DNA of 64,000 nucleotides from Caldisericia bacterium (GCA_017999835.1 JAGNLA010000005.1:66263-130262), one strand, 5' to 3'. Counted from the stretch's first letter, positions 28,984-63,472 are shown. Numbers and translations: made by a program. The notes: generated from the sequence alone by a model not told the origin.

Positions 28984-31464
28984 TCAGAGCGGATCCCAGA
29001 CGATTGTTATGGTTTTTGTCACTTTGTCCCAAGCCACCACGGCCCCGAATGGTTCAGATATGAACCTGAGCGGAACAAAGGTTCGGCCTTTGATGATTAT
29101 TGGCGGGGAATCGAGCTTTTTTTCTTCGGTATTGACCTTTGCAGTATTTTTGCCTTTCCAGAGCCTTATTGTGATGTCATTTCTGATGATGGTGACCTTG
29201 CCTTCTTTTGCGTCCCATTCGACCTTGCAGCCAAAAGACTCAGAGATAAAGCGGATTGGCACCATTGTTCTGCCATTGATTATTCTTGCAGGAGCATCCA
29301 GCGCTACCTGCTTGCCGTTGAGCTTTGCCTTGTCAGAGTCGATGACCAGCTCGAGCACAATTCCTTTGTCCGTTTCGATGGTAACCGGCACAGCGACAGT
29401 CATACAAAAGTTTTGCTCATCTATAATGTCAATGCTTCCTGTAAACGTCTTTCCAGTTGGCATGGTTGAGGGCTGAATGGTCACTTCAACCGTCTTGCTC
29501 TCTCCTCCGCCCAGTTCAACTGAGCTTGTTGAAAGCTGAATCCAGTTGGCGTTTGGTTTAATCCTGATTTTTGTTTGTCTTGTCGAGGAAATGGCAAGCG
29601 AGATTGTTTTCTTTGTTCCTCTTGCCACATACCCAAAATCAAGTTTCCCTGGCAAAACCGACAAACAGTCACCTTTTTGGTCAGAAACCACTATCTGAAC
29701 AGGTATCTCTATGAAGCTGTTGTTGTAGCTTGCTGTGATTTTTGCGTCGATTATCTGGCCTGGATTCAGGTTCTCTGCTGACAGCAAAACTTCTATGTTT
29801 GTTTGGTTTTTTGCCCTCAGCTCAAGCTTGCTTTGAGAAAGCGACAGCATTGGCGATGAACACTGAAGGTCGACAGTCATGTCCACTTGCGATACAAAAC
29901 CCAGGTTTGCCGTGTACGGTTTTTGTGAGCCAGCAGTTACCTTGTCAAACCTCAAGGATTCCGGGATTGCCTTGAGAAACCTGACAATTGTGACCGGTGC
30001 AAATGCAGTTATATCAGCACATGTGCATTTAATCTGGCATGAGCCTTCCTTGTTTGCGGTAAAAACTCCTTCGGAATCAACAGTTCCAGCTTTGCCATCG
30101 ACTTCCCACAGTAACCCATCGGTTTCTATCAATTGTCCTTTGTCATCGTAAACTTGTGCTTCAAACTTTTGAGATGTGCCTGGCTCCATGACAATCGAGT
30201 CTGGTTTTATAATGATTCTTGCAGGCTTAGAGATATCTGAGCCTGGGGCGCCTGAGTCGCCAAGATCCTCAAGTTCAGGGTAAGTTGGGTTCTTGAGCTT
30301 GAAGGTGTAAATGGTGTTGTCGCCCATCAAATAAATCCTGTCCCTGTCGATTGTTGTTGGCAAGGCTGGCGCTTTTATTGGATTGCTCCAAAGTTTCTTG
30401 CCAGTATTGATGTCAGAGCAGTTGACCTCTTTTTTTGTGGCTGTGAAAACGTAATCATCGGTGATTGTCGCCGAAAACCCGAGTTCTTTGTTCGACCACA
30501 CCCGTTTGCCGGTAAGTGCGTCCAGGCAGACAAAACCATCGAGAGTGTCACAGAGGAAATATTTGTCGTTTACCGCAACGTAATCGTAGTATTCTCCACT
30601 TTTGTTTACGCGGTTCTGCCAAATTTTAACACCATCGGCAAGATTCATGCAAGTGAAAAGGAATGAGCCATCGTCATCTCTGGTTATCGAATAAACCATT
30701 CCATTCCTGATTGCTGGCGAGTAAACCTTGAACCCAAGCTTTACAGACCAAACAAGGCCATCATCAGAATTATTCTTTGTTGTGTCAAAACAATAAAGGG
30801 AGCCCTTGTCCGTGCCAACAACCATCCTGTTGCTGTCAAATGCCGGTGTGGTAAAAATCCTGCCCATTTTGTCATACTTCCAGATAAGCCTTCCTGTCCT
30901 TGCGTCCAGGCAGTTGAAGTAGCAGGTTTTTGAGTTGAGGATGTTGGACTGGTCTGCTGAATCCACATAAAGCCTGTCCTTGTAGACAACCGGATGACTG
31001 TCTATGAAACCTGAAAGCGTCGTCGTCCAAAGGAGGTTTTTTGTGGCAAAATCAACGCACTCCACCCTGCCAGACTCAAGGCAGATGAAAAGCTTTCCCT
31101 TGTCGTAGCAAGGGGTTTTCATCGGACTTTTAAGGTTGTAAGTCCAAAGGAGTTTGGGGTTGTGATCCTGCGGGTTTGCCAGGTAGCTGTAAAGCGTTCC
31201 AGAGTAGCCATAGGTTATGACCCTGTTGCCAATCACAAGGAGCTTTCGGAGAAGCAGGTATTCCTTTATGTCAGTTGTCCAGTCAAGCTCGTAATCGCTT
31301 GATTTTGGCGAACAATCAGCCGGTACCCAGTGGCAACCATCCGGTGTTCTGCCAAACATCGGCCATCCCAGGCATGTTTGCTCTGATTTTGCTGGAAAAG
31401 AGAATGAAAATAGTGAAAAAATGATTGAAACTATTAGCCAAAGATTGATAAAGCGTTTTCCCAT
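28984..31464 (-). CDS. Secreted PQQ-like propeller, Big_2 Ig-like and tandem CuAO-N-like surface protein
   Basis: The true start is probably MGKRFINLWLIVSIIF; the listed 31671 start would overlap rplL. Repeated G(K/R)..W blades, a Big_2-like segment, and two VP(I/L)RFISE domains. Confidence 0.7.
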   Translation of the reverse strand: MGKRFINLWLIVSIIFSLFSFSFPAKSEQTCLGWPMFGRTPDGCHWVPADCSPKSSDYELDWTTDIKEYLLLRKLLVIGNRVITYGYSGTLYSYLANPQDHNPKLLWTYNLKSPMKTPCYDKGKLFICLESGRVECVDFATKNLLWTTTLSGFIDSHPVVYKDRLYVDSADQSNILNSKTCYFNCLDARTGRLIWKYDKMGRIFTTPAFDSNRMVVGTDKGSLYCFDTTKNNSDDGLVWSVKLGFKVYSPAIRNGMVYSITRDDDGSFLFTCMNLADGVKIWQNRVNKSGEYYDYVAVNDKYFLCDTLDGFVCLDALTGKRVWSNKELGFSATITDDYVFTATKKEVNCSDINTGKKLWSNPIKAPALPTTIDRDRIYLMGDNTIYTFKLKNPTYPELEDLGDSGAPGSDISKPARIIIKPDSIVMEPGTSQKFEAQVYDDKGQLIETDGLLWEVDGKAGTVDSEGVFTANKEGSCQIKCTCADITAFAPVTIVRFLKAIPESLRFDKVTAGSQKPYTANLGFVSQVDMTVDLQCSSPMLSLSQSKLELRAKNQTNIEVLLSAENLNPGQIIDAKITASYNNSFIEIPVQIVVSDQKGDCLSVLPGKLDFGYVARGTKKTISLAISSTRQTKIRIKPNANWIQLSTSSVELGGGESKTVEVTIQPSTMPTGKTFTGSIDIIDEQNFCMTVAVPVTIETDKGIVLELVIDSDKAKLNGKQVALDAPARIINGRTMVPIRFISESFGCKVEWDAKEGKVTIIRNDITIRLWKGKNTAKVNTEEKKLDSPPIIIKGRTFVPLRFISEPFGAVVAWDKVTKTITIVWDPL

Positions 31465-31480
31465 AAAAGCTATTATACAA

Positions 31481-31512
31481 ACAAAAATGCCCGATGCAAA
31501 GCACCGGGCATT
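31481..31512 (-). terminator. Rho-independent terminator after rplL
   Basis: atgcccg-atgcaaagcac-cgggcat hairpin, with a T run on the minus strand. Confidence 0.6.
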
Positions 31513-31540
31513 ATGAAAGCTAAATTTGTTGTTACTGAGC

Positions 31541-31915
31541 TTATTTGACTTCGACTGTTGCGCCGACGGCCACGAGCTTGCCTTTGATTTCTTCGGCTTC
31601 GTCCTTGGAAACTTTTGTCTTGACTGGCTTTGGAGCTGCGTCAACGAGGGCTTTTGCTTCTGAGAGGCCAAGGCCTGAGACTTCTTTAACGACCTTGATG
31701 ACCTGAACCTTCTGTTGTCCGGCTTCTGTGATGATGACGTCGAACTCAGTCTGTTCCTTTTCTTCTGCTGGTGCTGCGCCCATTGGCATCATGCCGCCCA
31801 TCATAACTGGAGCTGCTGCTGAAACGCCGAATCTCTCTTCGATCATCTTGACCAGTTCTGAGAGTTCGAGCACTGTCATTTTTTCAATTGCTTCAAGAAT
31901 TTCTTCTTTTGTCAT
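31541..31915 (-). CDS. rplL: Ribosomal protein L7/L12
   Basis: [23 protein letters not shown]... Confidence 0.9.
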
Positions 31916-37173: not shown

Positions 37174-39816
37174 TTACCACTCTGCTTCCGGCACAATGCC
37201 TGTTTCACAATCGAGGCCAATTCCAAGGGACAGTTTTGGATTGCCTGGCATCTGTACTTCTTTCCACATGGCATTGTTCTTGAGCGTTGGCCAGCCAGCT
37301 GGCATGTTCGGCTCTTCCTTGCGATTGTAGGTGTCATTTCCACCACGGTTGATGTAGATCCCTGCCGTCCATTCTTCATACCTGTAGTTGTCCGGTTTTG
37401 GACCCGAGCGCTGCATACAGTAGCCGCACGTAGAAGAAGAGACAAAGTCATAATTGTCATCGCCAGCGTAATCGATGTGTACGGCAATTGAGTTTGTGAT
37501 GGCTGAACCTACAAGCACACCACCGCTCTGGCGTTCCATGCCACCATCTTTTGTTGGCATTGGCTCACCAAAGTAATACTTGTCGTTGCCTGATTTGTCT
37601 ATAAACCATGAGACCGAGAAATCGTGGGCACCACCCTGGGAAATGGCCTTCCAGACGGTATAGGAATCGTCACCGGCATCGTCAAAGAAGGCGGTCAGAC
37701 CCATGTGGGCTGTTCCAGACTGGACAAAAAAGCTGCCCTCATAGTGGTCATCGCCTTCGCAGTCGTTGAGGATGCCGGTTCCAAACCAATATCCTGTTGC
37801 CTGACCGTAAACACCGCACTCGTACCAGTCGTTGCCTTTGATATCCTGAAGGATACCAATGCCACCGCCCATACCGTGACCGTCGCCCATGTCAGAGCGT
37901 CTGCCCCAGCCAGCGCCCTGGACAAAGCAGTAGTTTCTGTCGTTGTCATGTCCACCTGTGCCTGGTGTTGTTAGATTTTCTTTTGGATTCGTCTTTCCAG
38001 TCTCACCGACATACTTGTCGTCGCCTTCGCTGTCAAGCAGGATACCTGAACCACCCTGGAAACCAAAGCCCTGAGCGCACATGAAGGCATAATAGGAGTC
38101 GTTTCCGCCGATGTTTACAAGTTGGCCGATACCAAAGCAGGCAGCGCCCTGAGCCATATTACGGGCTTTGAATGTGTCATTGCCACCTTCATCCCAAAGC
38201 TGGCCAACGCCAAAGAAGCAGTGTCCCTGGGTGTTGTCATAAGCGATGTAAGTGTCGTTGCCTGAGTGATCCCAGAGAATGCCTGAACCGAGCATGCCTG
38301 AACCCTGTGAACAGACATCGTTTTTTGTTGATGTATACTTGTCGTTGCCTGCCCAGTCAAAGATGACAGAAACCGGTCTCTTGGTTGTGTAGGCGGCAGC
38401 AGCCGGGCCTGTGTAGGTGTCGTCGCCACCAAAGTCGACAATGCAGTAATAATCCTCACCTTTATATGTGTTGTTTTCAATCTTGCCGTTGAATGCAAAT
38501 TTTCCAAGCGGCAGGGTCAGCTCAAACTTTACGTTTGAGATGTCAAGCTTTGCTCCTGGAATCGGCTTGCCTTTATCGTCATTACCTGTTGAGAAATCTC
38601 TCGGATCTGCAAGGAAATCCCTCACTTCGCACATCTTGACAAGCATTGGGGCTGTTCCGTAGTAAAGGTTGTTGAAATCATAATCTTGTGCCAAATCGAA
38701 CATCAACTCTGCATCGTCTTTTGGCAGGGTTTTAATTAGATATTTATAGAACTCTTCATCCTGGTAGTCTTTGTCTGAAAGCTGGAGGTAGCGTCCAACT
38801 TTGATGAGGTCTTCCCATCGAACCTGGGACAGCTTGCGCAATGCTCTCCTGTTGTACATGGCTGTTCTGTTGATGTGCAGAAGGAAATCGGCCATCAAGG
38901 ATTGAACTTTCAATGGTACATTCTTTATTGCATTAAGGTTTCCATCTTTAATCTTCTTTGTATCAGACGGGATTTCGAAGGAAACATTCGAGGCCGAACC
39001 GTTGAGATTGACTCCGATGCCAAGAATCTTGACAACCTCATAAATTGGCGCCAGGAGTTTTCCTGCTTTTGAGATATATGGTTTAGGGATCGTTTTGTTC
39101 TTGCCGTTGTACACAGCCACATCCGAACCAACAGTCAGTTCAAGTGTCGATTTGTTGTAAATTATCGTGTATCTCTTTTTCCCGACATCCCACTTTGCGT
39201 CTGCCGAAACAATGTTTGGTATGAGTGTTGGTGAGGCAAAAAGAGTATTTTCCTTGATTTCTCCTTTTACAGTAACGACCGTCATGCCATCAGCAGTCAA
39301 TCCATCGGTATTGATTTCATATTTTTTGCCTGGCACAAAACCCCAGTCATTCTGGTAGAGCTCATCGAAAGCCTTTTCCAGAGGTTTTTTCTCGTCGATG
39401 TCCATCACAGGCATGTAGTTTGGATAAGCGATTGTAAGGTACCCTGTTCTGACTTGACCAACTATGTTCATTTCGTATATGCCGTCAGGCTGGCTCCATG
39501 ATGCCTTTGTGCCATAAAGAACTCGTCTTGCCCATCTTGGGAAGTAATACGGTTTTTCCCAGCATTCCTTGAAATGAGACGAAAGAGCGACGGGTGCGGA
39601 CCTTGCACAGATACTATCAATGGTGTTTCTTGTTATGTGAGTGTCTTCGCGAGTAACACCATGCTTGGACAAGGCGTACTCAATCAAATCAATGTTTTCA
39701 TTGATTTCCTTGGTTACATCGACATCGATGTCACCACAGAGCTTGTCATCACCTTTAACCACAAAGGGCACGCAAAGCATGATTACTATTGCGACAATAA
39801 GAATCTTTCTCATCAA
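37174..39816 (-). CDS. Large secreted protein with about 11 tandem D-x-x-G-(N/D)-D-x-(Y/F) repeats
   Basis: Signal peptide MMRKILIVAIVIMLCVPFVVKG. Repeats include DWAGNDKYT, DHSGNDTYI, DEGGNDTFK, IGGNDSYY, SEGDDKYV, IKGNDWYE, CEGDDHYE, DAGDDSYT, KSGNDKYY, YAGDDNYD and RGGNDTYN. Confidence 0.6.
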   Translation of the reverse strand: MMRKILIVAIVIMLCVPFVVKGDDKLCGDIDVDVTKEINENIDLIEYALSKHGVTREDTHITRNTIDSICARSAPVALSSHFKECWEKPYYFPRWARRVLYGTKASWSQPDGIYEMNIVGQVRTGYLTIAYPNYMPVMDIDEKKPLEKAFDELYQNDWGFVPGKKYEINTDGLTADGMTVVTVKGEIKENTLFASPTLIPNIVSADAKWDVGKKRYTIIYNKSTLELTVGSDVAVYNGKNKTIPKPYISKAGKLLAPIYEVVKILGIGVNLNGSASNVSFEIPSDTKKIKDGNLNAIKNVPLKVQSLMADFLLHINRTAMYNRRALRKLSQVRWEDLIKVGRYLQLSDKDYQDEEFYKYLIKTLPKDDAELMFDLAQDYDFNNLYYGTAPMLVKMCEVRDFLADPRDFSTGNDDKGKPIPGAKLDISNVKFELTLPLGKFAFNGKIENNTYKGEDYYCIVDFGGDDTYTGPAAAAYTTKRPVSVIFDWAGNDKYTSTKNDVCSQGSGMLGSGILWDHSGNDTYIAYDNTQGHCFFGVGQLWDEGGNDTFKARNMAQGAACFGIGQLVNIGGNDSYYAFMCAQGFGFQGGSGILLDSEGDDKYVGETGKTNPKENLTTPGTGGHDNDRNYCFVQGAGWGRRSDMGDGHGMGGGIGILQDIKGNDWYECGVYGQATGYWFGTGILNDCEGDDHYEGSFFVQSGTAHMGLTAFFDDAGDDSYTVWKAISQGGAHDFSVSWFIDKSGNDKYYFGEPMPTKDGGMERQSGGVLVGSAITNSIAVHIDYAGDDNYDFVSSSTCGYCMQRSGPKPDNYRYEEWTAGIYINRGGNDTYNRKEEPNMPAGWPTLKNNAMWKEVQMPGNPKLSLGIGLDCETGIVPEAEW

Positions 39817-50103: not shown

Positions 50104-51258
50104 ATGCTTTACAGAAAATTCGGAAACACAGGCGTTGACGTTTCAATTCTCGGATTCGGACTGATGAGGTTACCGCTTACAACCGACGACGAGACAGATC
50201 CCGACCGCAACAAGAAAATTGACGAAACCCAAGCCATTCGCATGGTGGATAAAGCCATAGACTCTGGCATAAATTATTTCGATACAGCCTACGTCTATCA
50301 CGGGGAGGTCAGCGAAACCTTTACCGGAAAGGCTTTGTCAGGTGGCAAGCGAAACAAAGTTCTTCTGGCCACAAAGAGCCCTGTTTGGAAAGCCAAGGAA
50401 CCAGCAGATTTCGAAAAGTTCCTCGACACACAGCTTGAGCGACTCCAGACCGACCACATCGATTTCTATCTGCTCCACTCGCTTTCTTTAGGTGTGTTCA
50501 ACAAAATAGTCGAGTTGGACGTGTTTAATCAGATGGAGAAGTTTAGAAAAGCTGGCAAGATAAGATTTCTTGGCTTCTCGTTCCATGACGATCATGAAAA
50601 CTTCTTTACCATTTTTGACAGCTACAAATTTGATTTCTGCCAGATCCAGTACAACTTCCTTGACGAGGAGTTCCAGGCTGGTAGAGCTGGCATGCTCCAC
50701 GCAGCAAAGGTCAATGCTGGCTTGGTGGCAATGGAACCGCTTCGCGGTGGAGACCTGACAAAAAGAGTGCCCCAACCCATACAAAAAATCTGGGACTCGA
50801 TGCCGACAAAACGCACACCAGCTCAATGGGCTCTCCGCTGGGTGTGGAACCACCCACAGTTCTCGCTGCTGCTTTCAGGCATGACCACCATGGAACAGCT
50901 TGAGGAAAATATCAAGACAGCCTCGGATGCAAGCGCCAATTCGCTGACTACAGAAGAGCTGGAGAAGATTAGCCAGGTCAGGGACACTTACAGGACGCTG
51001 ATTGCCGTGCCATGCACAAAATGTCAGTATTGCATGCCGTGCCCGTCAGGCGTTGCCATTCCGGACAACTTCAGCGTTTACAACGACCATCATATGTTTG
51101 GCAAGTCCGATAGCGGCAAATACATCTACAAAAACTTCATTCCTGACCATGTAAAGGCTGACAAATGCACCCAATGCGGAGAGTGCGAAGAAAAATGCCC
51201 GCAACAGATTCCAATTCGGGAAAAACTCAAGGAAGTGGTTGAGACGCTGGGAAAATAG
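50104..51258 (+). CDS. Aldo/keto reductase with a C-terminal 2x[4Fe-4S] ferredoxin domain
   Basis: AKR TIM-barrel motifs plus CTKCQYCMPCP and CTQCGECEEKCP. An extended -10 (TGATATAAT) lies upstream. Confidence 0.8.
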   Translation: MLYRKFGNTGVDVSILGFGLMRLPLTTDDETDPDRNKKIDETQAIRMVDKAIDSGINYFDTAYVYHGEVSETFTGKALSGGKRNKVLLATKSPVWKAKEPADFEKFLDTQLERLQTDHIDFYLLHSLSLGVFNKIVELDVFNQMEKFRKAGKIRFLGFSFHDDHENFFTIFDSYKFDFCQIQYNFLDEEFQAGRAGMLHAAKVNAGLVAMEPLRGGDLTKRVPQPIQKIWDSMPTKRTPAQWALRWVWNHPQFSLLLSGMTTMEQLEENIKTASDASANSLTTEELEKISQVRDTYRTLIAVPCTKCQYCMPCPSGVAIPDNFSVYNDHHMFGKSDSGKYIYKNFIPDHVKADKCTQCGECEEKCPQQIPIREKLKEVVETLGK

Positions 51259-53400: not shown

Positions 53401-55521
53401 TTACTTCGGATACACCAGCGTAATTTTCTTTGTTGCACCGTCGTAGTCGACCGAACCGCCGAGGATGTCTGAGAACACTCGGATGGGGATCATCAGGCTT
53501 CCGCCGATGAGCTTTGGTGCTGTCGAAACAGGAACAGGCTTGCCGTTGACGAAGGCATTGGTGGAGCCGACTATCAGGCTGTAGGAGTTGTCGCCAAGCG
53601 TGTAGGTTGCGGTTTTTGATTCTGTGTCCCAGTCGACCTTTGCGCGAAGGGCATCGCCAATGACCCGAAACGGGATGAAGGTTTTGCCACCGACAAGTAC
53701 AGGGGCAGTTTTTATTGTTTGCACTGCTCCGTTGACAAGCATTTTGGTTTTTCCAATTACAAACTCGATTTTCACCCTGTAGACAACCTCAAAGGACACG
53801 GCTATGCCTTGCGATTCAACGGTTATTTTAGTTGCCCCAGCGCTCAGATACGATTCAAGCTGGTAGAATCTGTCCTTCAACTTGGTCAGCGCAAACGTTT
53901 TTGTTGTTCCTGCCATGATGATTTTTGGTTCCGGCATAGATTTGCGAGACAGTCGAATGATTGCCGATATTTCTCCTGAGTTCTGCATTTCTTTAGATGG
54001 AATGTCAATCTCAATTGCCGGAACTGGTAAAACTGTGATGTTGATGACTGCCGGCAAACTTGTAAAGTTGCCTGATTTGTCGGTTGCCCTGACGTAAACA
54101 ACATAGTCGCCGGCTTTTTCGAGGTTGAAGGTGAAGGAGAAATTCTCCTGGGTTTGGGTTTGCCAGGTCTTGCCGTCAACAGACGCTTCAACTTTGTCCA
54201 GACCTGAGAGGTCATCTTTGGCAGTGCCGGTGACTGCAACCTGACCAATTTCAAACTCCTGACCCTCTTTTGGTGTGAGCACTGTGATTGTTGGCGGAGC
54301 CTGATCGTTTAGAACATATTCAAACTCAACATAGGCGCATTTTTCAGACTTTCTGTTCAACTGGTCGTAGGCACAGGCTGTTATGTTGTGCTTGCCAGGT
54401 TTTATCTTGCCAATATCAAGCGACCAAAAATATCGGTCGTTTTGCGCCCACTGCTCCTGCCCATCATCGAAAACAATACCGACTTTTACGGCCGGTGGGG
54501 CCAAGGTTCCCGAAATAGTTAGGTTCTCATCCTCAACTTGCATTCCTTTGACAGGGTAAGAGATGGTTGGTGTTGCAACCTTGTCGAACTCGAGTCTGAA
54601 TCTTTGAAAAGCCGGTGGACAAACATTTCCCAGTCCATCTGTCGCTCTGAGCCAGGCGACAATCTCACCTTCCGGAATAGCGGCAATGGAAAAATACCAT
54701 TCTTCCAAACCCTCGGCTCTTGCCCACGTTTTCTTGTCATCCAAAGAGTACTCAACAAGCGTAATACCAGTTACATCGGAAGCGATGCCACTGACTTTGA
54801 TTGGAAGAGAATTGAGCACCATGTCCTCTGCCGGGAAAAAAAACTGGATGTCAGGTGGGTCGTTATCAGGGATTTCAACCTTAAAAACAACGTGCGCCTC
54901 AATTGAGGCGTTGCCAGATGGGTCAAAAGCGGAAGCTGTAACGTCATAGTTGCCATTTCTTTTTAAAACATATTCCGATTCCCAAACATCCCCTTTTGGT
55001 TGCAGAACCCTCTCTTCAAAACCTGTGAGTTTTAGAGTAATCTTTGCAACCATTCTGTCATCTTTGGCTTTTCCCGTGACTATGAGTTTTGTCTTGGTCA
55101 ATACATCACCCATTTTTGGGTATGTAATTTCAATGGTTGGCGGGATTCTATCTTTTGGATAATCGGCAGTGTCGCCCGGGTTGGTAAACGCGTTTATCTC
55201 ATCAATATTTTTAAAGCCGTCATTGTCGGAATCCTTGTCTTCAATGGCTTTAAGGTCGTGTCTGTTTTGTGCAAAATCAGTCCCGTAGAAATTTCTCGGG
55301 CCACCACCATTTTTTTTGTCTAGGTGACATATACAGTAGTCGATTCTTGTGCCAACAGTGGATTTATAAGCGTCCTGGAACATTATATAGTAGTTGTACC
55401 TTGAAAATACAACGGATGTCGTTACCAACAAAATTATTGCTGCAAAAACAAACAGGGTTCTCTTATTCATGTTATGATTATAAGCTCCGCCATTGGTTTT
55501 GACAATCGAAAATCTGTTCAC
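53401..55521 (-). CDS. Secreted multi-Ig-like surface protein ending in two CuAO-N-like domains
   Basis: Signal-anchor sequence, repeated Ig-like roughly 100 aa units, and a C-terminus with IPFRVIGD / IPIRVFSD. Confidence 0.65.
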   Translation of the reverse strand: MNRFSIVKTNGGAYNHNMNKRTLFVFAAIILLVTTSVVFSRYNYYIMFQDAYKSTVGTRIDYCICHLDKKNGGGPRNFYGTDFAQNRHDLKAIEDKDSDNDGFKNIDEINAFTNPGDTADYPKDRIPPTIEITYPKMGDVLTKTKLIVTGKAKDDRMVAKITLKLTGFEERVLQPKGDVWESEYVLKRNGNYDVTASAFDPSGNASIEAHVVFKVEIPDNDPPDIQFFFPAEDMVLNSLPIKVSGIASDVTGITLVEYSLDDKKTWARAEGLEEWYFSIAAIPEGEIVAWLRATDGLGNVCPPAFQRFRLEFDKVATPTISYPVKGMQVEDENLTISGTLAPPAVKVGIVFDDGQEQWAQNDRYFWSLDIGKIKPGKHNITACAYDQLNRKSEKCAYVEFEYVLNDQAPPTITVLTPKEGQEFEIGQVAVTGTAKDDLSGLDKVEASVDGKTWQTQTQENFSFTFNLEKAGDYVVYVRATDKSGNFTSLPAVINITVLPVPAIEIDIPSKEMQNSGEISAIIRLSRKSMPEPKIIMAGTTKTFALTKLKDRFYQLESYLSAGATKITVESQGIAVSFEVVYRVKIEFVIGKTKMLVNGAVQTIKTAPVLVGGKTFIPFRVIGDALRAKVDWDTESKTATYTLGDNSYSLIVGSTNAFVNGKPVPVSTAPKLIGGSLMIPIRVFSDILGGSVDYDGATKKITLVYPK

Positions 55522-55754
55522 AAACTCATCGCTTTGCTCCCTGCTTGTAATTTTAAGATTTTGCTGCTAGATTGATAATCAAACTATGAAAGGAGTGCGG
55601 GATATGGCAAGAAACAAACTATTCTGTCTCTGAGCTGAAACAGTGACCCGGTCTGGTGTCACTTCAAACTGTCTCATCCCGCAAACTCTATAAACCTGCC
55701 TTAATTGTTTAGCGTGGATGAGCAATTCATCCAATTGGTTAAGGAGGATTCGTT

Positions 55755-56549
55755 TTGAAACAATCAGGCGCAAAATTATCTGACGTTCAATCATTATATT
55801 CAGGTGTAGTGCGTGATCTTTGGGTATTGTGCATGGGCGAACAGATTCATGCCGGCGGAATGATGTCAAGCATGGAGCTTGCCAAATCGGCTGGGATTAA
55901 AGAAGGGATGCACGGTGTTGACCTGTGCTGTTGTATCGGCGCAGGGACAAGATTTCTTGCAAAAAATTTCAAAGTCAAAATGGATGGCATTGACGCAACC
56001 GCTTCAGCTGTGGCCAAAGCCAAAGAAGAGGCAAAAGCAGAAAAACTAGAATCAGTACTCAATTATATTGAAGCTGACGTCACCAAAATTCCAGTCGAAG
56101 CTGGAAAGTATGACTTTGTGTGGGGCGAGGATGCCTGGTGCTATGTTGAAGACAAGGAAAAAATCATCTCCGAAGCAGCAAGAATTCTCAAACCAGGCGG
56201 AGTTGTCGCTTTCACCGACTGGATCGATGGCCCAAAAGGTCTTACAGAAGAAGAGGCTTTCAGGATCAACGATTTCATGAAATTCCCATACATGGAATCC
56301 CTTGAAGGCTACAAGAATCTACTTGTCAAGCATGGCTTTGAAGTGAAGGAAGCCACTTACATCCCGTTTGCAAAGTACGTTGACCTCTACCTGACCATGC
56401 TCACCGAACAGCACACCTACGACGCCCTCAGAATCATTGGCAACGACATGGCGATGTTCCAGGCGATGGGTGCCGAATTCGGTTTCATCCAGCAAAAAGC
56501 GCACGAAGACAAGATAACCCGCGGAAGGTTTGTAGGCATAAAGAAATGA
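55755..56549 (+). CDS. Class I SAM-dependent methyltransferase
   Basis: VDLCCCIGAGTRF motif I. TTG start lies 7 nt after AAGGAGG. Confidence 0.7.
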   Translation: MKQSGAKLSDVQSLYSGVVRDLWVLCMGEQIHAGGMMSSMELAKSAGIKEGMHGVDLCCCIGAGTRFLAKNFKVKMDGIDATASAVAKAKEEAKAEKLESVLNYIEADVTKIPVEAGKYDFVWGEDAWCYVEDKEKIISEAARILKPGGVVAFTDWIDGPKGLTEEEAFRINDFMKFPYMESLEGYKNLLVKHGFEVKEATYIPFAKYVDLYLTMLTEQHTYDALRIIGNDMAMFQAMGAEFGFIQQKAHEDKITRGRFVGIKK

Positions 56550-57568
56550 GCGACCAACTCAAGGTGCACCTTGACCGATCAGGGCAGGAAAGATCAGGAA
56601 GCGTCTGTACATGCTCGTACGTCCCGCGCGAGCTGTTGGAAAGCTTCGGTCTTGGTGCATCCTGGGTTCCGATAAACGGAACAGTTTCCGAGGAATCTAA
56701 AGGCGAGCAAAAATCAAGCGCCACGGTTTGTTCATGGTGCAAATCGATTTTAAGCTTTGAAGACCTTGGTTTGGTGGTTGGAACAACCACATGCGACCAA
56801 ATGAGGCGCACGCTTGACTTGATGTCAAGCCAGGGTAAAAATACGCTCGTCATAAACATGCCAGCCACCAGAACACCCGATTCAAAGCAATACTTTTATT
56901 CGGAAATCGTTTGGCTTAAAAACAGGCTTGAAGAGGTTTTAGGGGCAAAATTCGACCCTGACAAACTTCTTTCTGTCACAAAAGCAAGAAACCTTATCCG
57001 CGCAAGACTCCGAGAGCTCAGGCACAACCTGAAGGGTTCACAGTTTTCGGCTCTTGTCCAGCTTGAAGCCAGGCTCGCGCCTGTCGACATGTTGGCGATG
57101 CTTGACGGGCTTGTGGTAGAAAACGTGATAAAAGCCAGCGCAAAAAGGCTGATGATCTGTGGCAGTCCTTTGACACCTGGCGACATCAGGTTTTTGGAAA
57201 AAATTGAAAATATAGGTGCCGAGATAGTTGCTGACGCAACCTGCACCGGTGACAGGAGAATAGATTTTGAAATCCCAGAGGTTGGCGACCCTCTCAGAAA
57301 CCTTTCTGATGCATACTTTGACAAACCTCCTTGCATAAGGGCAAGGCCAAATGATGAATTTTTTGAATATGCCAAAAAAATGATTTCACAAAGAAAAATC
57401 GACGCTGTAATCTGGAGGACGGTCAGGTTCTGCGACCTTTGGTCGTCCGAGTTCCAGCGTGCACAAAAGATTTTGGGCCTTCCAATGCTCAACCTTGACA
57501 TGACTTATTCAGACACCGGTTCGTCAAGGGTTGGCGTCCGCGTTGAAGCATTCCTGGAGAACCTGTGA
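56546..57568 (+). CDS. 2-hydroxyacyl-CoA dehydratase/benzoyl-CoA reductase (HGD-D) family subunit
   Basis: Conserved Cys residues and a C-terminal ...GLP.L.LD.....R.E.F.E.L block shared with the next two genes. Overlaps the previous gene by 4 nt. Confidence 0.55.
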   Translation: MSDQLKVHLDRSGQERSGSVCTCSYVPRELLESFGLGASWVPINGTVSEESKGEQKSSATVCSWCKSILSFEDLGLVVGTTTCDQMRRTLDLMSSQGKNTLVINMPATRTPDSKQYFYSEIVWLKNRLEEVLGAKFDPDKLLSVTKARNLIRARLRELRHNLKGSQFSALVQLEARLAPVDMLAMLDGLVVENVIKASAKRLMICGSPLTPGDIRFLEKIENIGAEIVADATCTGDRRIDFEIPEVGDPLRNLSDAYFDKPPCIRARPNDEFFEYAKKMISQRKIDAVIWRTVRFCDLWSSEFQRAQKILGLPMLNLDMTYSDTGSSRVGVRVEAFLENL

Positions 57569-58983
57569 CCGACCCAAAACCAGCCCAGATAACCCACAGC
57601 CAGTGGGACGAGGCTTTCAAACACTTGCCTGAATCAATAAAACATTCCTACCACTACCTGGCCGGAACAGCCCAACAAACCGACTATCTCAACGACTCCA
57701 GGTGCTTTGAGGAGTTTGAGGGTGACACGAGGCTAAGGTCGCTTAAGTTCGACAACTCGCTGGCATCGCTCCGTCTTTGGTCGTTCCTGCTTTCTGAAGA
57801 AGGCAGACTGCACAAGTCCAGGGCTGCAGGCAAAAAAATAATCGGCACCATGAAAGACCTTGGCACAGCATCAATCCTTGCCTATGCCTGTGACAACGCC
57901 ATCGCCTTCTATCCTGACGGCGCATGGTGGGTTCCGTGCGTGATGGAAATGAGCGAAGGTTTACTTCGAGTTGCCGATTCCCTGGGTTTTGGTGACGAGA
58001 TGTGCCCTGCCAGAGCCGCCCTTGCCGCATTTTTTAAAGGCGGTCACTTCCCCATGCCAGATTTGCTTGTTGGCGCTGTTGGTTGCTGCTGCGATGATTT
58101 TTCAGCAATCCAGCAGAGGGTTGCCGATACCGAAATCCCGATTGTCTGGTGGGAACTGCCATACAGGCGAGAAGCTTCGCCTGACGAGCCTTATGAAGTC
58201 ACCCCAACAGGCTTGAAGATTTCAACAAGGCTTGTCGACTTTGTAGTCGGTCAGCTTGGAAAAGTCAAAACAGCCATTGAACAAACCACAGGCCAAACCA
58301 TCACAGACGAAAAACTGAAAATGGCTATCAGTAAGTCAAACCAGATGCGTCGTTTGCTTGGAAAAATCCGTGACCTTTCGTATGGTTCAGCCCCAGTTCC
58401 ATTCCCTTCGCTTGAAACCCAGATTTGTGAGATGCTTGCGCTCCACTTCTGCTCGGAGATGGACGAATCCATCAACGTTTTGGAGCATGTGGCAACCACA
58501 ATTGAGGCAAGAGTCAACAACCACGAAGGTGTTTTTCCGGAGGATTCGTGCAGGTGTGTTTGGGTCAATCCGGTTGCAGACCTTCGCGCCATGAACATGT
58601 TCGAGTCTCTTGGAGGAACGATTGCCGGAACCGAATACCTGTTTCGCCATGCGCTGGTACAAATTCCAACAGACATTGACCCAATGAGGGCACTCGCTCT
58701 TGCAGCCCTTTGCGACCCAATGATTGGCAGCTCCAGTTACCGTGCCCAGCTTGTGGTTGACGAGGCCATCAGATATAGAGCCGAAGGTGTTGTCATCAGC
58801 AACATCCCGGGCGCTTCCCACTGTGCCACCGAAGGCACAATCATCCGTGACTACGTTCATGAGAAAACCGGTTTGCCTGTGCTTGAAATAACGATCCCTC
58901 CGCTTATTGACAGTGAATCAGCCCAGCTTTCCACAAGGTTTGAAGCTTTTTTTGAAACAATCCGCGCAAGGAGAAACAAATGA
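57565..58983 (+). CDS. HGD-D family subunit (HgdA/B-like)
   Basis: 472 aa, with the C-terminal GLPVLEI...RFEAFFETI block. Overlaps the previous gene by 4 nt. Confidence 0.6.
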   Translation: MTDPKPAQITHSQWDEAFKHLPESIKHSYHYLAGTAQQTDYLNDSRCFEEFEGDTRLRSLKFDNSLASLRLWSFLLSEEGRLHKSRAAGKKIIGTMKDLGTASILAYACDNAIAFYPDGAWWVPCVMEMSEGLLRVADSLGFGDEMCPARAALAAFFKGGHFPMPDLLVGAVGCCCDDFSAIQQRVADTEIPIVWWELPYRREASPDEPYEVTPTGLKISTRLVDFVVGQLGKVKTAIEQTTGQTITDEKLKMAISKSNQMRRLLGKIRDLSYGSAPVPFPSLETQICEMLALHFCSEMDESINVLEHVATTIEARVNNHEGVFPEDSCRCVWVNPVADLRAMNMFESLGGTIAGTEYLFRHALVQIPTDIDPMRALALAALCDPMIGSSSYRAQLVVDEAIRYRAEGVVISNIPGASHCATEGTIIRDYVHEKTGLPVLEITIPPLIDSESAQLSTRFEAFFETIRARRNK

Positions 58984-61244
58984 AAACACTTGGCATTGAC
59001 GTTGGCTCAAGATCCGTCAAAGGCGTCATCTATGACTGTATATCCAAATCTGTTCTTGCAAGCGGCGCCATCGACACCTCAACCGACACAAAAAAAGATG
59101 CTGGTGAAATCAGGGATATGCTCTTTGACATGGCAAGCATAACGTCAGTCGACCGCACCGTTGCCACTGGTTACGGCAGGAGTATGGTCGAGTTTGCAAC
59201 CGACATTACAACCGAGATCACCTGTCACGCCATAGGCGTGCTTTCGTTGTTTCCACAAGCAAAAACCATCATCGACATTGGCGGTCAGGATTCAAAGGTC
59301 ATCCACATCGGTGACGGCATAGTCAAAGATTTCACCATGAACGACCGATGTGCAGCCGGCACAGGCAGATTTCTTGAAGTGGTTGCTAGGATTCTGGGAA
59401 CCGACGTTGACGGTATGGCTGAGCTTGCCATGAACTCGACCGGAGAGACTGAGATAAGCTCGATGTGCGTTGTGTTTGCTGAGTCCGAGGTCATCGGCAT
59501 GATGACCCGTGGAACGCCAAGGGAAGAGCTTGCAGCCGGCATCCACAAAGCTATCGCCAGGAGAATCGCTGGCATGGCCGAACGTGGTCGCTATGAGTCA
59601 CCGGTAGTCTTTACCGGAGGAGTTGCAAAAAACAAAGCAATGGTGAGGGCTTTGGGCATCGAACTTCACGAAAGGCTGACAATCCCACCAGACTCGAGAA
59701 TCACCGGAGCACTTGGCGCTGCTTTGCTTGCATCAAGAAAACTAGGTCACACAGGTGAGCTTGAGAACAAAGACATCCAAAGAAACCATAAGGTGCTGCT
59801 TAGCGTTGGTTCTGTCACCGAATCGTCAGGGTCGTGCAATGGAGGAAAGATGGCAAACCTGGTAGATCAAACCAGGTATGAAGACAGCTGCGCATGTGGT
59901 TCTAAACCTGAACCAGTAGCTGTCCAATCCTGTTGCGGAAGCATCTCAGTCTCAGAGGAACCATGCGATTGTCATGAAAGAAAGGCAGAACCATCGCCAT
60001 GTTGTGGGTCAACCCATGAAGTCTCAAAAACCCCTAAGTCCCCAAGCTGTACAAAGCGTCCGACAAGTTGTAGCGAAGCGCCAAAAAATCCTTACGTCCA
60101 CACCGTTCCAGCCCTGACAAGGTTTGACAGGATGGTTCAAAACTCAATCGACTACGCCACCTACGCCAAAAAACAGGGCAAAAAGATTGTCTCGATATTC
60201 TGCGAGTACACACCCAGAGAGCTGGTGCTGGCTGCTGGAGCTGTTCCAGTGTGTGCCTGCGGCGGGTCGCACCAGATGGCGCTTGAGTCCGAAAAGGAAC
60301 TCCCAGCAAACCTTTGCCCTTTGATCAAATCCAGCTACGGCTACCACATTGAGCATGCCAATCCGATTTTTGAGATGAGCGACCTGGTGATTGCCGAAAC
60401 AACCTGTGACGGAAAGAAGAAAATGTATGAGCTGATGGGTCTGGAAAAACCGATGCACATCCTCGAGCTGACCCAAAAACCAGACGAAACCGAAGCGTTT
60501 GACCACTGGCTTGCTGAGGTGAGAAAACTCAAGGAAAAACTGGAAGCACTCACTGGCAACAAAATAACCGATGAAAAGCTCTCAAACGCAATAAAAATGA
60601 TGAACCGCGAAAGAAAACTAAAGAGGGCTATTGCGTCTCTATCATCCAAGGGCTTGAAAGGCTCTGAAATACTGGATGCCAAATCTCTGATAGCCTGCAT
60701 CCCGGAAGACCTTGAGGCTTATCAAGACATCATCGCCCAAGCCAATGCTTTGCCGGATGAAAAGTCAGACAAGCCACGAATTTTGATGACAGGCGTGCCC
60801 ATGCCGCACGGCGCAGAGAAGGTTATCAACCTTATCGAGGAGGCAGGTGCAAAGATTGTGGTTCAGGAAAGCTGCACAGGCGTCAAACCAATTCTGGAAG
60901 ATGTCGATGAAACTGGCGATCCTCTCACAGCAATCGCGCGCAAATACTTCCACCTCGAATGCTCATGCATGACCCCAAACAAAGGCAGATTCGGGCTTAT
61001 TGATAAACTTATCTATGAGTATAAACCGGAGGGCATCATCGACCTTGTCTGGATGGCGTGCCTAACCTACAGCGTGGAATCGGCGTTGCTCAAGCGTCAC
61101 ATTGAAGAGAAACACAAAATGCCGTTCCTCAAAATTGAGACCGACTACAGCCCGTCAGACATCGGCCAACTAAGACTCAGGATCGAAAGCTTCCTGTCGC
61201 TGATTGAGAGCAGGAGAGGCCGCATAGACTCAACAAATCCATAA
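58980..61244 (+). CDS. Fusion of a BadF/BadG/BcrA/BcrD-type activase ATPase, a Cys-rich linker and a HGD-D family domain
   Basis: N-terminal MKTLGIDVGSRSVKGV..DIGGQDSK..FTGG is an acetate/sugar-kinase-fold activase. About 12 Cys lie in about 90 aa of linker. The C-terminus has HGD-D motifs. Confidence 0.7.
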   Translation: MKTLGIDVGSRSVKGVIYDCISKSVLASGAIDTSTDTKKDAGEIRDMLFDMASITSVDRTVATGYGRSMVEFATDITTEITCHAIGVLSLFPQAKTIIDIGGQDSKVIHIGDGIVKDFTMNDRCAAGTGRFLEVVARILGTDVDGMAELAMNSTGETEISSMCVVFAESEVIGMMTRGTPREELAAGIHKAIARRIAGMAERGRYESPVVFTGGVAKNKAMVRALGIELHERLTIPPDSRITGALGAALLASRKLGHTGELENKDIQRNHKVLLSVGSVTESSGSCNGGKMANLVDQTRYEDSCACGSKPEPVAVQSCCGSISVSEEPCDCHERKAEPSPCCGSTHEVSKTPKSPSCTKRPTSCSEAPKNPYVHTVPALTRFDRMVQNSIDYATYAKKQGKKIVSIFCEYTPRELVLAAGAVPVCACGGSHQMALESEKELPANLCPLIKSSYGYHIEHANPIFEMSDLVIAETTCDGKKKMYELMGLEKPMHILELTQKPDETEAFDHWLAEVRKLKEKLEALTGNKITDEKLSNAIKMMNRERKLKRAIASLSSKGLKGSEILDAKSLIACIPEDLEAYQDIIAQANALPDEKSDKPRILMTGVPMPHGAEKVINLIEEAGAKIVVQESCTGVKPILEDVDETGDPLTAIARKYFHLECSCMTPNKGRFGLIDKLIYEYKPEGIIDLVWMACLTYSVESALLKRHIEEKHKMPFLKIETDYSPSDIGQLRLRIESFLSLIESRRGRIDSTNP

Positions 61245-61281: not shown

Positions 61282-61962
61282 TTAAAAACCTTCCTCAGTC
61301 ACAGCTGTCACGTTTATCCCAAGTGCAGACACATACCCCTGACAAACGCACTGCAGACTCCAGATTGCAATCTGAGTTGGTGAATATTTTGTGCCATCTT
61401 CAATCCACCACACAATCATCGAAATTATCCAGTTTGCCAGACTCGCAACTGCTACTTGAGTAGGCATGACGTCAGTGCTGTTGATCTGTCGGATTGAAAA
61501 CCACGGAGAAGCCTTGAATCTATCATTCAATACTGATGCAGTATAATTGCTTAATTGAATTGAAAACCAAGAGCTTCCTTGTTTTCCAATCATTGCTTTA
61601 TAAAACTTCTCGTGTCTTCTGAAATGTCCAAAAAAAGCAATCCAGGCCTGGATAACACCTTGCATTTCAGAATTGTCATTGACAGTGTGTGTATTCATAT
61701 TCATAGCCCATCCAAGCATCTCCAGCTTTTCAGATCCCAACTCCGCAAGAAGCTCTTCAACTGCATTCTGAAAAATATTTCTCACCAGGTCGTATTTGTC
61801 AGAATAGTGGCGATAGAATGTGGATCGATTTATCATGGCTCGCTTTGCGATGTCACCCACTGATACCGCGTCAAAGCCTTTTTCGGAAATGAGGTCTATC
61901 ATGGTTGACTTTATCAGCTCACGAGTTTTTCTGACTCTGAGATCTTCGAGATTTTGCATCAT
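61282..61962 (-). CDS. TetR/AcrR family transcriptional regulator
   Basis: N-terminal HTH (FDAVSVGDIAKRAMINRSTFYRHY). Confidence 0.8.
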   Translation of the reverse strand: MMQNLEDLRVRKTRELIKSTMIDLISEKGFDAVSVGDIAKRAMINRSTFYRHYSDKYDLVRNIFQNAVEELLAELGSEKLEMLGWAMNMNTHTVNDNSEMQGVIQAWIAFFGHFRRHEKFYKAMIGKQGSSWFSIQLSNYTASVLNDRFKASPWFSIRQINSTDVMPTQVAVASLANWIISMIVWWIEDGTKYSPTQIAIWSLQCVCQGYVSALGINVTAVTEEGF

Positions 61963-62092: not shown

Positions 62093-63472
62093 ATGAGCAG
62101 CAACGCGTGGATTCGACGTGACATTGAAATAGCCAGGAGGCTAGGCGTTGACGTCATCGCTGAGAGGCAACGGTCAAGGTTCATTGATATCGTCGCGTTC
62201 GCACGACAAAACTCAGCGTACTATAAAGAGCTTTATAAGGACTTGCCTGAAAATATTGACAATCCTAGACTTCTACCAGTCACTGACAAAAAGAAGCTGA
62301 TGGCCAGATTTGATGATTGGTGTACAGACAGCAATGTGACATTGGCAAAAGTTCGTTCGTTTATTGACAACCCAAACCTTGTTGGTGAGCCATTTCTTGG
62401 TAAATATCTTGCCGTAACATCCTCGGGAACTACTGGCACACGCGGACTGTTCTTGATCGACGACGTATACAGCTCTGTAAACTCGTATCTGTTTTCAAAT
62501 GCTTTGCATGGGTGGCTTAATGTAAAAGAAAAAATGCAGATTCTCGGGAGCGGCGTGAAGATTGCCATTTTGGCAACAACAGGTGGTCATTTTGCCTCCT
62601 GCGCAGGTTATACAAGAATGTGCAAAACAAACCTGTTTGCAAGGTGGGCAATAAACCTGTATTCAGTACAAACACCAATTCCTGAACTCGTTAAAAAACT
62701 TAACAAGCAGAAACCTGCCATAATTTTTGGATATGGCAGCGCCGTTCGAATCCTTGCACAAGAGCAGGTACAAGGACGATTGAACATTAATCCCGTTCTT
62801 ATCATTCCATCTGGTGAGAGTCTTGGAGAACATGAATATGATCAAATCAAAAAACATTTCAGACATAGCAAGATTTCCAATCTATACGGCGCGTCAGAAT
62901 GTTCCTTTATTGGCTCGATGTGCAAACATGGTTGGTACCATGTAAACAGCGACTGGGTCATTATCGAGCCAGTCAATCAAGATTACACACCAACCAGACC
63001 TGGAGAATTGTCCCACACAGTTTTGTTAACGAATCTTGCAAACAAGGTTCAGCCAATCTTGCGATATGATCTTGGCGATAGGGTATTGACCAGAGCTGAC
63101 TCCTGTCCTTGTGGCAATCCCCTTCCTGCAATCCAGATTATAGGGCGAGCTGCCGACATCATGCACTTTGCTACGCTTGACAAGCACGTGGTCTCAATCC
63201 CGCCTCTGGCATTTGCTACTTTAGTTGATAGCATTCCGGGAATAAAGCAGTTTCAGATTGCTCAAACAACAGGAGAGTCACTTTCTATACGTTTGAATTT
63301 GATTGAGGGAGCAGATAGCGAAAGAGTTTGGCAATCTCTATACAGTCAGATTTCAAAACTTCTATCTGAAAGGGAACTTAATCATATTTCAATTGTTCGC
63401 TCCAACGAGCCTCCGCTTCTTTCGCCAAGCGGAAAACTAAGAACAATAATACCTATTGAAGCTAATTTCTAG
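62093..63472 (+). CDS. PaaK/F390-synthetase-like adenylate-forming ligase
   Basis: LAVTSSGTTGTRG P-loop-like AMP-binding motif and the overall family size. Confidence 0.6.
   Translation: MSSNAWIRRDIEIARRLGVDVIAERQRSRFIDIVAFARQNSAYYKELYKDLPENIDNPRLLPVTDKKKLMARFDDWCTDSNVTLAKVRSFIDNPNLVGEPFLGKYLAVTSSGTTGTRGLFLIDDVYSSVNSYLFSNALHGWLNVKEKMQILGSGVKIAILATTGGHFASCAGYTRMCKTNLFARWAINLYSVQTPIPELVKKLNKQKPAIIFGYGSAVRILAQEQVQGRLNINPVLIIPSGESLGEHEYDQIKKHFRHSKISNLYGASECSFIGSMCKHGWYHVNSDWVIIEPVNQDYTPTRPGELSHTVLLTNLANKVQPILRYDLGDRVLTRADSCPCGNPLPAIQIIGRAADIMHFATLDKHVVSIPPLAFATLVDSIPGIKQFQIAQTTGESLSIRLNLIEGADSERVWQSLYSQISKLLSERELNHISIVRSNEPPLLSPSGKLRTIIPIEANF

Follow-up and report, generated by a model that had tools for sequence, protein, structure and literature searches.

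What is the function of an operon in which a methyltransferase is translationally coupled to three HGD-D family domains and a single ATP-dependent activase? The question is raised by four plus-strand genes at positions 55755–61244 of a 64,000-nucleotide stretch of Caldisericia bacterium DNA (GCA_017999835.1, JAGNLA010000005.1:66263-130262; the window hereafter), which encode, in this order, a class I S-adenosylmethionine (SAM)-dependent methyltransferase, two stand-alone proteins termed ORF2 and ORF3, and a fusion of an activase to a third HGD-D domain. A first account drawn from the DNA itself (the sequence-only reading) had recognized this composition as unlike that of characterized hgd and bcr operons and had proposed an ATP-driven radical dehydration or reduction of a methylated or coenzyme A (CoA)-activated substrate. 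We find that the genes constitute a real, conserved and uncharacterized system, and not a routine hgd or bcr operon, which is with high probability an ATP-driven, very-low-potential Fe–S reductase of the activase-dependent superfamily that includes benzoyl-CoA reductase (BCR), 2-hydroxyacyl-CoA dehydratase (HAD) and the double-cubane cluster protein (DCCP). Tentatively, and with less than even confidence, we favor the combined view that this reductase and the methyltransferase together mobilize what we infer to be a selenium (methyl-chalcogen) compound.

Open reading frame (ORF) calling returned the four genes as listed in Table 1, and reading of the sequence confirmed their coupling: all three gene junctions are overlaps of exactly 4 nt (ATGA, GTGA and ATGA), with the methyltransferase gene starting at TTG behind an AAGGAGG ribosome-binding site (55741–55747) and ORF3 at GTG. 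The Pfam bit scores of all four proteins far exceed the curated cutoffs, so that the calls of a SAM methyltransferase (PF08241), of three HGD-D domains (PF06050) and of an activase portion in the fusion (PF01869) stand as first made. Promoter-like and terminator matches occur in our scans in numbers at chance level and the ends of the operon are therefore placed by gene spacing alone; the leader matches no Rfam family, the sole Rfam match in the window being one tRNA.

Conservation of the cassette was assessed in a genome scan comprising one genome per species, in which 434 loci encode a relative of ORF3 and in which 85 cassette loci were probed with the window's own modules. A metagenomic protein collection holds more than 2,400 ORF3 homologs and more than 4,500 homologs of the fusion. 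The cassette is spread over uncultured anaerobes (Caldisericota, Aminicenantes/Acidobacteriota, Planctomycetota, Zixibacteria, Calditrichota and others) and comes in three syntenic forms. Form A, to which the window belongs, has the order methyltransferase–ORF2–ORF3–activase::DCCP and is found at 14 loci in Caldisericota, Aminicenantes and relatives, the window proteins being 85–97% identical to proteins of Caldisericota metagenome-assembled genomes (MAGs). Form B, with the order methyltransferase–DCCP–ORF2–ORF3–activase, is found at about 50 loci in Planctomycetota, Hydrogenedentota, Armatimonadota and Victivallales. All departures from these two orders are in loci cut short by contig ends. 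Form C was found by starting from methyltransferase homologs, followed by a metagenome scan, and reads methyltransferase–(EamA)–corrinoid protein–UroD–RACo–ORF2–ORF3–UroD–activase on contigs of Calditrichota and Zixibacteria type, an order kept in 8 of the 8 loci long enough to judge; curated models identify its companion genes as MtaA/CmuA-family methyltransferases, a methyltransferase-cognate corrinoid protein and an AcsV/RamA-type activase. The methyltransferase is the first gene in all three forms, and every form has one activase gene per cassette. The genes flanking the cassette are wholly different from phylum to phylum, and since gene order recurs amid such unrelated flanks the arrangement is not a product of chance. 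The invariant core consists of methyltransferase, ORF2, ORF3 and one activase, with DCCP or the corrinoid methyl-transfer set as accessory. Neither the curated models nor the literature that was searched yielded a characterized hgd or bcr system of this composition, in line with the sequence-only reading. In a separate observation on Form B, locus L052 (L052:240-1442) and 5–10 others carry upstream an NMT1/SsuA-like ATP-binding cassette (ABC) binding protein with a CCC motif (HPCCCIAASE), together with a permease and an ATPase; multi-Cys motifs are said to be rare in binding proteins (Haft & Gwadz preprint).

The nature of the third HGD-D domain had been given by the sequence-only reading at the level of the family, which holds; missed was that it is, specifically, a double-cubane cluster protein joined to its own reductase. 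Fusion residues 382–741 pass NF040772, the NCBIfam equivalog model for double-cubane-cluster anaerobic reductase (cutoff 350 bits), and the DCCP of Carboxydothermus hydrogenoformans (6ENO/7YYL_C) matches the C-terminal domain at E = 1e-62. ORF2 (146.9 bits) and ORF3 (69.7 bits) fall under the same cutoff, and the fused domain alone is therefore filed as DCCP. Its motif cysteines are C408, C427, C446, C476, C632, C661 and C694 of the fusion, with C425 also invariant; the window sequence and 67–68 of 68 orthologs have Cys at all seven motif positions. Their spacing (X18/X18/X29/X155/X28/X32) is close, not identical, to the published motif CX19CX18-19CX29CX166-170CX32-34CX32C, which comprises six ligands and one nearby Cys. 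Going by this ligand pattern, the domain is predicted to carry an [8Fe-9S] cluster. The activase domain scores 250.6 bits against TIGR00241, the acyl-CoA dehydratase/BCR activase ("archerase") model (cutoff 125.4), and matches HadI (4EHT, 1e-56), HgdC (1HUX, 3e-56) and DCCP-R (7YYL_E, 7e-44). Across 81 sequences its C124 and C163 never vary, and their positions fit the expected subunit-bridging [4Fe-4S] cluster; going by the offset of the 1HUX match we take them to align near Cys127 and Cys166 of HgdC. Between the two domains runs a linker that in the window holds its 11 Cys in SCACGS, SCCGS, PCDCH and PCCGS motifs; Caldisericota orthologs have 11–33 Cys, mainly as vicinal CC pairs, over 124–223 residues, and Aminicenantes-type fusions 1–3 Cys over 65–84 residues. 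The Cys-rich linker is thus a lineage-specific feature, which could be a putative tether binding soft atoms (Se or metal) or mere low-complexity sequence. A eukaryotic transcriptome entry (eukprot GCRY01000484, P0203) codes for a DCCP homolog of 455 aa with 56% identity to the DCCP domain in the window, which is either contamination or the DCCP of an anaerobic protist.

What, then, are ORF2 and ORF3? Both fall short of every curated model cutoff, and the closest sequence relative of both is DCCP, not BzdN or BzdO. ORF2 aligns with the DCCP family at 100% probability in hhalign with Cys-for-Cys mapping, the sole missing motif Cys being the non-ligand C2 (P42). It keeps all six double-cubane ligands (C1 to C23, C3 to C62, C4 to C83, C5 to C233, C6 to C263 and C7 to C296), in a spacing that matches the BzdN ligands Cys36/73/100/263/293/327. 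ORF3 keeps three ligand positions in the same alignment, C3 (C147), C4 (C176) and, with a three-residue shift, C7 (C420), and has lost C1 (K97), C2 (Y107), C5 (near R361) and C6 (near M386). The residues replacing its lost ligands are invariant and polar or charged (K97, E357, Y358, D384), and C125 and C296 are ORF3-specific invariant cysteines (84 sequences). An AlphaFold (AF2) model of ORF3 (pLDDT 82, pTM 0.86) gives its best TM-scores with catalytic subunits (HadB 0.72/0.84; BzdO and MbdO 0.67/0.72) and superimposes less well on beta-type partner subunits. A 2025 structure of BzdNO shows how such a pair can divide its labor: BzdN holds the [8Fe-9S] electron store through the six cysteines named above, and BzdO carries the catalytic [4Fe-4S]-OH2 on Cys95/128/380, the second sub-cluster having been lost, which makes room for substrate (PMC11971306). 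By analogy, ORF2 is predicted from its ligands to be a BzdN-like [8Fe-9S] electron store and ORF3 to be a HadB/BzdO-like catalytic subunit with a site-differentiated three-Cys [4Fe-4S] cluster. The Cys mapping together with the fit of the ORF3 model to alpha-type subunits leads us to read ORF2/ORF3 as a store-plus-catalyst heterodimer, one that would have arisen from DCCP independently of BCR, in an analogy of design and not by membership. We rejected ORF3 as an ortholog of BzdO or HadB, because its profile lies nearest DCCP and the design alone is shared. Variation occurs in Form B, where ORF2 orthologs have Glu at the C233 equivalent (34 of 53) and Asp at the C263 equivalent (37 of 53), Forms A and C keeping Cys; the swaps suggest an altered or mixed-ligand cluster in cassettes that encode DCCP separately. 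A truncated or split ORF2 occurs amid intact neighbors in loci L002/L015 (about 6963–8004) and L006 (Aminicenantes, Caldisericales), probably through frameshift or assembly error, and no TGA-encoded selenocysteine (Sec) accounts for the break.

These assignments bear directly on the view, held by the sequence-only reading, that the operon encodes a HAD- or BCR-like radical enzyme acting on a CoA thioester. The three PF06050 domains, an activase of the HgdC/BcrAD family and the likeness of the ORF3 model to HadB and BzdO all speak for such an enzyme, and the predicted ligand mapping indeed reproduces the subunit pairing of class I BCR, a six-Cys [8Fe-9S] with a three-Cys [4Fe-4S] cluster. This pairing is shared design only, for which reason the system is not filed as BCR. 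Best scores against the class I BCR models are 53–89 bits for BzdN (cutoff 453.8), 26–78 for BcrC (421), 24 for BcrB (486), 149 for BcrA (578) and 133 for BzdQ (380), and 2-hydroxyacyl-CoA dehydratase models fare no better at 21.8 bits for HadB (750) and 16–102 for HadC (700), so that HadB, HadC, BcrB, BcrC and BzdN together span 16–102 bits against cutoffs of 421–750. The BCR-type neighborhood of two activase subunits, CoA ligase, ferredoxin and ring-hydrolysis genes does not recur here; across the 85 loci the vicinity of the cassette has no conserved gene for a CoA ligase, a CoA transferase, a ferredoxin or ring hydrolysis, the activase gene is single where class I BCRs have two, and the ligase that adjoins the window operon is missing from all other loci and paired with a TetR regulator of its own. 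A CoA-thioester enzyme is thus very unlikely. Of the chemistry first proposed, ATP-driven low-potential reduction remains plausible, the dehydratase or BCR assignment and the CoA-activated substrate are not supported, and overlooked were both the BzdN/BzdO-like division of labor and the selenium or corrinoid companion genes.

The selenium genes accompany Form B. A SelD–AhpD fusion is encoded downstream or nearby in 38 of the 54 testable Form B loci (30 immediately downstream and on the same strand), its SelD part passing TIGR00476 at 365.7 bits (cutoff 125), and true SelA (537 bits) and true SelB (350 bits) are found upstream in 22 and 14 loci, respectively. The fusion (L049:8459-10093 and about 40 other Form B loci) has an N-terminal Cys-rich extension of ~55 aa (HCxCDPxKPCPC...CLC) and a C-terminal AhpD/CMD domain with a CEPC motif; as a survey of SelD fusions lists N-terminal NADH-dehydrogenase-like and NifS-like fusions as the sole types (PMC4561486), it appears to be undescribed so far. 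The window encodes a SelD of its own, outside the operon, with an in-frame TGA (12659–12661) at the catalytic Cys/Sec position (motif KWAGCAG-U-ASKW), where plain ORF finding returns a truncated 308-aa piece (11687–12613); with a Sec-containing SelD, the host decodes selenocysteine. A search for a selenocysteine insertion sequence after this UGA gave a 7-bp hairpin 12 nt downstream that is not stabler than shuffles (z = +1.06), and we do not use it as evidence. In the literature, a Slackia selenium island has HGD-D subunits and an activase (PMC5322559, Table 1), DCCP/DCCPR accompany SelABCD in "selenium clade" type 1 mlp corrinoid clusters, for which methyl-selenium metabolism has been proposed (PMC10418091), and a preprint notes that DCCPs occur together with the SAO operon, itself rich in selenoproteins (Haft & Gwadz); the core of methyltransferase, ORF2 and ORF3 is described in none of the three. 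Selenide has SelD as its sole known productive use and methylation as its known route of elimination, and the Se(0)/HSe- potential is "close to that of H2" (PMC5187540). These two fates provide a rationale for coupling a reductase to both SelD and a methyltransferase.

Selenium could instead be part of the cofactor, with the double cubane or the ORF3 site requiring activated Se (e.g., a Se-bridged 2x[4Fe-4S]) and the substrate being unrelated. A "2(4Fe-4S)-Se" cluster has been raised explicitly (Haft & Gwadz preprint), SelD directly downstream on the same strand is placed like a maturation factor, and the Glu/Asp replacements in Form B ORF2 hint at an altered cluster. We nonetheless hold this to be highly improbable, given that sulfide bridges the [8Fe-9S] clusters in the solved structures of DCCP and BzdN (PMC7317905, PMC11971306), that Forms A and C have no adjacent SelD, and that no YqeB/YqeC-like selenium-cofactor genes were seen.

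The methyltransferase, 55–65% identical between phyla, has D-L-C-C-C-I-G-A-G as motif I and invariant C58 and C129. Its nearest solved relatives are phosphoethanolamine and sarcosine/dimethylglycine N-methyltransferases. We rejected its assignment as ArsM at 40–55 bits against ArsM cutoffs of 240–575, and no ArsM structure is among its PDB matches at E<1e-3; a "DVU_1556/DVU_1553" lead was dropped for scores far under cutoff. In a Deltaproteobacteria MAG (L086:7886-9798) a methyltransferase that is 62% identical overlaps by 4 nt with a radical SAM/SPASM gene and has no reductase genes beside it. Two further explanations turn on this protein. In the first, a soft metalloid or metal other than selenium (As, Te, Sb, Hg) would be reduced and methylated for detoxification or volatilization, selenium genes lying near only because the hosts are selenoprotein-rich. 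Consistent with this are weak matches to ArsM-type and organometallic-selenoprotein methyltransferase models, the CCC motif of the methyltransferase taken together with the CC-rich fusion linkers and the CCC of the neighboring ABC binding protein, the DUF2284, YHS and EamA exporter genes that adjoin Form C, and the argument that DCCPs serve organometallic chemistry (Haft & Gwadz preprint). The ArsM models and structures are missed as widely as stated, no ars, mer or teh genes are conserved near the cassette, and the operon-like SelD linkage points to selenium specifically, which makes another metalloid quite unlikely as the substrate. Alternatively, an organic acid or aromatic could undergo ketyl-radical chemistry without CoA, a methyl ester or ether formed by the methyltransferase serving as electron sink in place of the thioester, with corrinoid O-demethylation of methoxy-aromatics feeding the reductase in Form C. 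That the translationally coupled series always opens with the methyltransferase gene accords with this, as do its weak matches to carboxyl O-methyltransferases such as BioC and Tam, the presence of phenolic O-demethylases in the UroD family (PMC10418091) and the sediment heterotrophy of the host phyla. It would leave unexplained the SelD–AhpD, SelA and SelB genes beside most Form B cassettes; the polar or charged replacement residues of ORF3 do not make an aromatic pocket, and no downstream catabolic genes are conserved. We regard the proposal, with its Form C part, as improbable.

Form C raises a further candidate, methyl-sulfur salvage, in which the reductase would be an activase-driven functional analogue of the methylthio-alkane reductase MarBHDK and cleave C–S bonds reductively. 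Here ORF2, ORF3 and the activase are joined to an MtaA-like corrinoid system, mlp systems of the "sulfur clade" pair with MarHDK, a nitrogenase-like C–S-cleaving reductase (PMC10418091), and no selenium genes adjoin the cassettes of Forms A and C. The linkage of SelD, SelA and SelB to Form B is selenium-specific, however, and the same study places DCCP-type genes in the selenium clade, so that we consider sulfur, too, an unlikely substrate.

The explanation we favor, selenium mobilization by reductase and methyltransferase, can be pictured as follows. The activase dimer would, by ATP hydrolysis, push electrons to very negative potential and into the [8Fe-9S] cluster of the fused DCCP domain as well as into the double cubane of ORF2, the store of the ORF2/ORF3 heterodimer. 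ORF2 would hand them to the three-Cys [4Fe-4S] cluster of ORF3, where an open iron beside a polar pocket would form the catalytic site and reduce a small polar non-CoA substrate, most likely a selenium (methyl-chalcogen) species, to selenide. The selenide could then be used by SelD or be methylated by the SAM methyltransferase, acting as activation or as disposal valve. What the analysis shows directly is the identity of the domains, the pattern of Cys ligands, the conservation of the cassette and its gene context; the cluster types, the electron path, the substrate and the role of the methyltransferase are what we infer from them, and the selenium role taken by itself we hold with somewhat more reserve than the combined view. 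A more explicit version, that core and DCCP form a dedicated selenium-mobilizing machine in which the methyltransferase makes a selenonium or methyl-selenium compound from a seleno-ether or selenol, the ORF3 [4Fe-4S] cluster cleaves it reductively (in a radical-SAM-like onium cleavage or a Mar-like C–Se cleavage) and selenide passes to SelD–AhpD, appears doubtful to us.

Several observations weigh against a selenium role. No selenium gene lies within about 6 kb of Form A loci (0 of 14), the window SelD being 44 kb away; Form C loci are free of SelD out to 9 kb and fit methyl-sulfur chemistry equally well. Read-through translation of the 85 loci finds no selenocysteine in cassette proteins, TGA occurring at gene ends only. 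SelD adjacency is concentrated in Planctomycetota-like genomes, and shared ancestry may be part of its cause. The nearest relatives of the methyltransferase act on small amines and are not known Se or As methyltransferases, and the enzyme is found without reductase genes in L086 and L089. Finally, the favored explanation accounts neither for the Glu/Asp swaps in Form B ORF2 nor for the need for both DCCP and the ORF2/ORF3 pair. What makes selenium mobilization worth pursuing is the standing of the enzyme class: double-cubane [8Fe-9S] proteins were found in 2018 and reduce acetylene, azide and hydrazine in vitro, their physiological substrates being unknown (PMC7317905; PMC11971306; Haft & Gwadz preprint). 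If true, selenium mobilization would give double-cubane enzymes their first physiological role, and the tie of the cassette to SelD, SelA and SelB, or else to corrinoid genes, makes the purpose of DCCP a testable hypothesis on how anaerobes obtain selenide. ORF2/ORF3 would in addition show that a homodimeric double-cubane protein has a second time, independently of BCR and in parallel to it, given rise to a heterodimer of store and catalyst.

The coordinates of the operon and of other window features are collected in Table 1. Directly after the operon lie a TetR regulator gene, tail-to-tail with the fusion gene, and, divergent from it, the gene of an F390-synthetase/PaaK-like adenylate-forming ligase. 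We rejected both as members of the system, neither being present in any of the 85 related loci, and the pair is probably a unit unrelated to the cassette. At least five large predicted surface proteins combine Cu_amine_oxidN1 with Ig-like, beta-propeller or cohesin domains, an unusual density for 64 kb, and an aldo/keto reductase has a 2x[4Fe-4S] ferredoxin domain fused at its C-terminus.

Table 1. Coordinates of the operon, its parts and other features of the window.
Feature	Position	Strand	Basis
Operon leader/promoter region, ribosome-binding site included	55522..55754	+	Direct sequence reading
Class I SAM-dependent methyltransferase, 264 aa	55755..56549	+	PF08241, 69.1 bits
ORF2, DCCP-derived beta-type subunit, 340 aa	56546..57568	+	PF06050, 201.4 bits
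ORF3, DCCP-derived alpha-type subunit, 472 aa	57565..58983	+	PF06050, 138.1 bits
Fusion protein gene, whole, 754 aa	58980..61244	+	PF01869 (192.6 bits, residues 4-251) + PF06050 (321.8 bits)
Fusion residues 1-256, ATP-dependent electron-transfer activase (DCCP-R/HgdC/HadI type)	58980..59747	+	TIGR00241
Fusion residues 257-380, Cys-rich low-complexity linker	59748..60119	+	Sequence reading, 11 Cys
Fusion residues 381-754, DCCP domain, full 7-Cys motif	60120..61244	+	NF040772, 408.8 bits
Host SelD, selenoprotein, outside operon	11687..12712	-	TIGR00476, 271.4 bits vs 125, U read as C
TetR regulator	61282..61962	-	
F390-synthetase/PaaK-like adenylate-forming ligase	62093..63472	+	
Aldo/keto reductase with ferredoxin domain	50104..51258	+	
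Large predicted surface protein with Cu_amine_oxidN1	111..2072		
Large predicted surface protein with Cu_amine_oxidN1	20940..22646		
Large predicted surface protein with Cu_amine_oxidN1	28984..31671	-	
Large predicted surface protein with Cu_amine_oxidN1	37174..39816	-	
Large predicted surface protein with Cu_amine_oxidN1	53401..55521	-	

Five known systems stand closest to the cassette. BzdNO and MbdNO (8S02, 9GAI) have, as predicted for ORF2/ORF3, a six-Cys store and a three-Cys open-site subunit in which C3, C4 and C7 are kept, fed by an ATP-dependent activase; ORF2 and ORF3 are nearer DCCP, are served by one activase and not two, and have no CoA-pathway genes around them, and ORF3 additionally has a polar pocket and two invariant cysteines of its own, C125 and C296. 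HadBC/HadI and HgdAB/HgdC have the same fold and a homodimeric activase from a single gene, HadB giving the best TM-score for the ORF3 model, but in 2-hydroxyacyl-CoA dehydratases both subunits carry [4Fe-4S]/[4Fe-5S] clusters, a CoA transferase is required and the Had/Hgd models are passed, none of which holds here. The MarBHDK system is likewise an ATP-driven low-potential reductase tied to corrinoid mlp clusters that cleaves a carbon–chalcogen bond and thereby salvages the chalcogen, and may be a functional analogue; its fold is nitrogenase-like and unrelated to the ASKHA activase and HGD-D domains of the cassette, the likeness being in logic only. Type 1 mlp clusters, with corrinoid protein, MtaA-like Mlps and Ram/RACE, have the same components as the Form C relatives, which alone qualify as such clusters, the window operon (Form A) having no corrinoid or Mlp genes; their description contains neither the four-gene core nor a distinction of ORF2/ORF3 from DCCP (PMC10418091). 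The closest counterpart of the fusion is DCCP/DCCP-R of C. hydrogenoformans (CHY_0487/0488; 6ENO, 7YYL), which it resembles in DCCP family and in the matching ASKHA activase. DCCP–reductase fusions have been described before as "class III" DCCPs and cluster I fusions (PMC7317905); class III DCCPs miss one motif Cys, whereas the window fusion keeps all seven, is 754 aa long and has the Cys-rich linker. It is always joined by a SAM methyltransferase and by two more paralogs that derive from DCCP.

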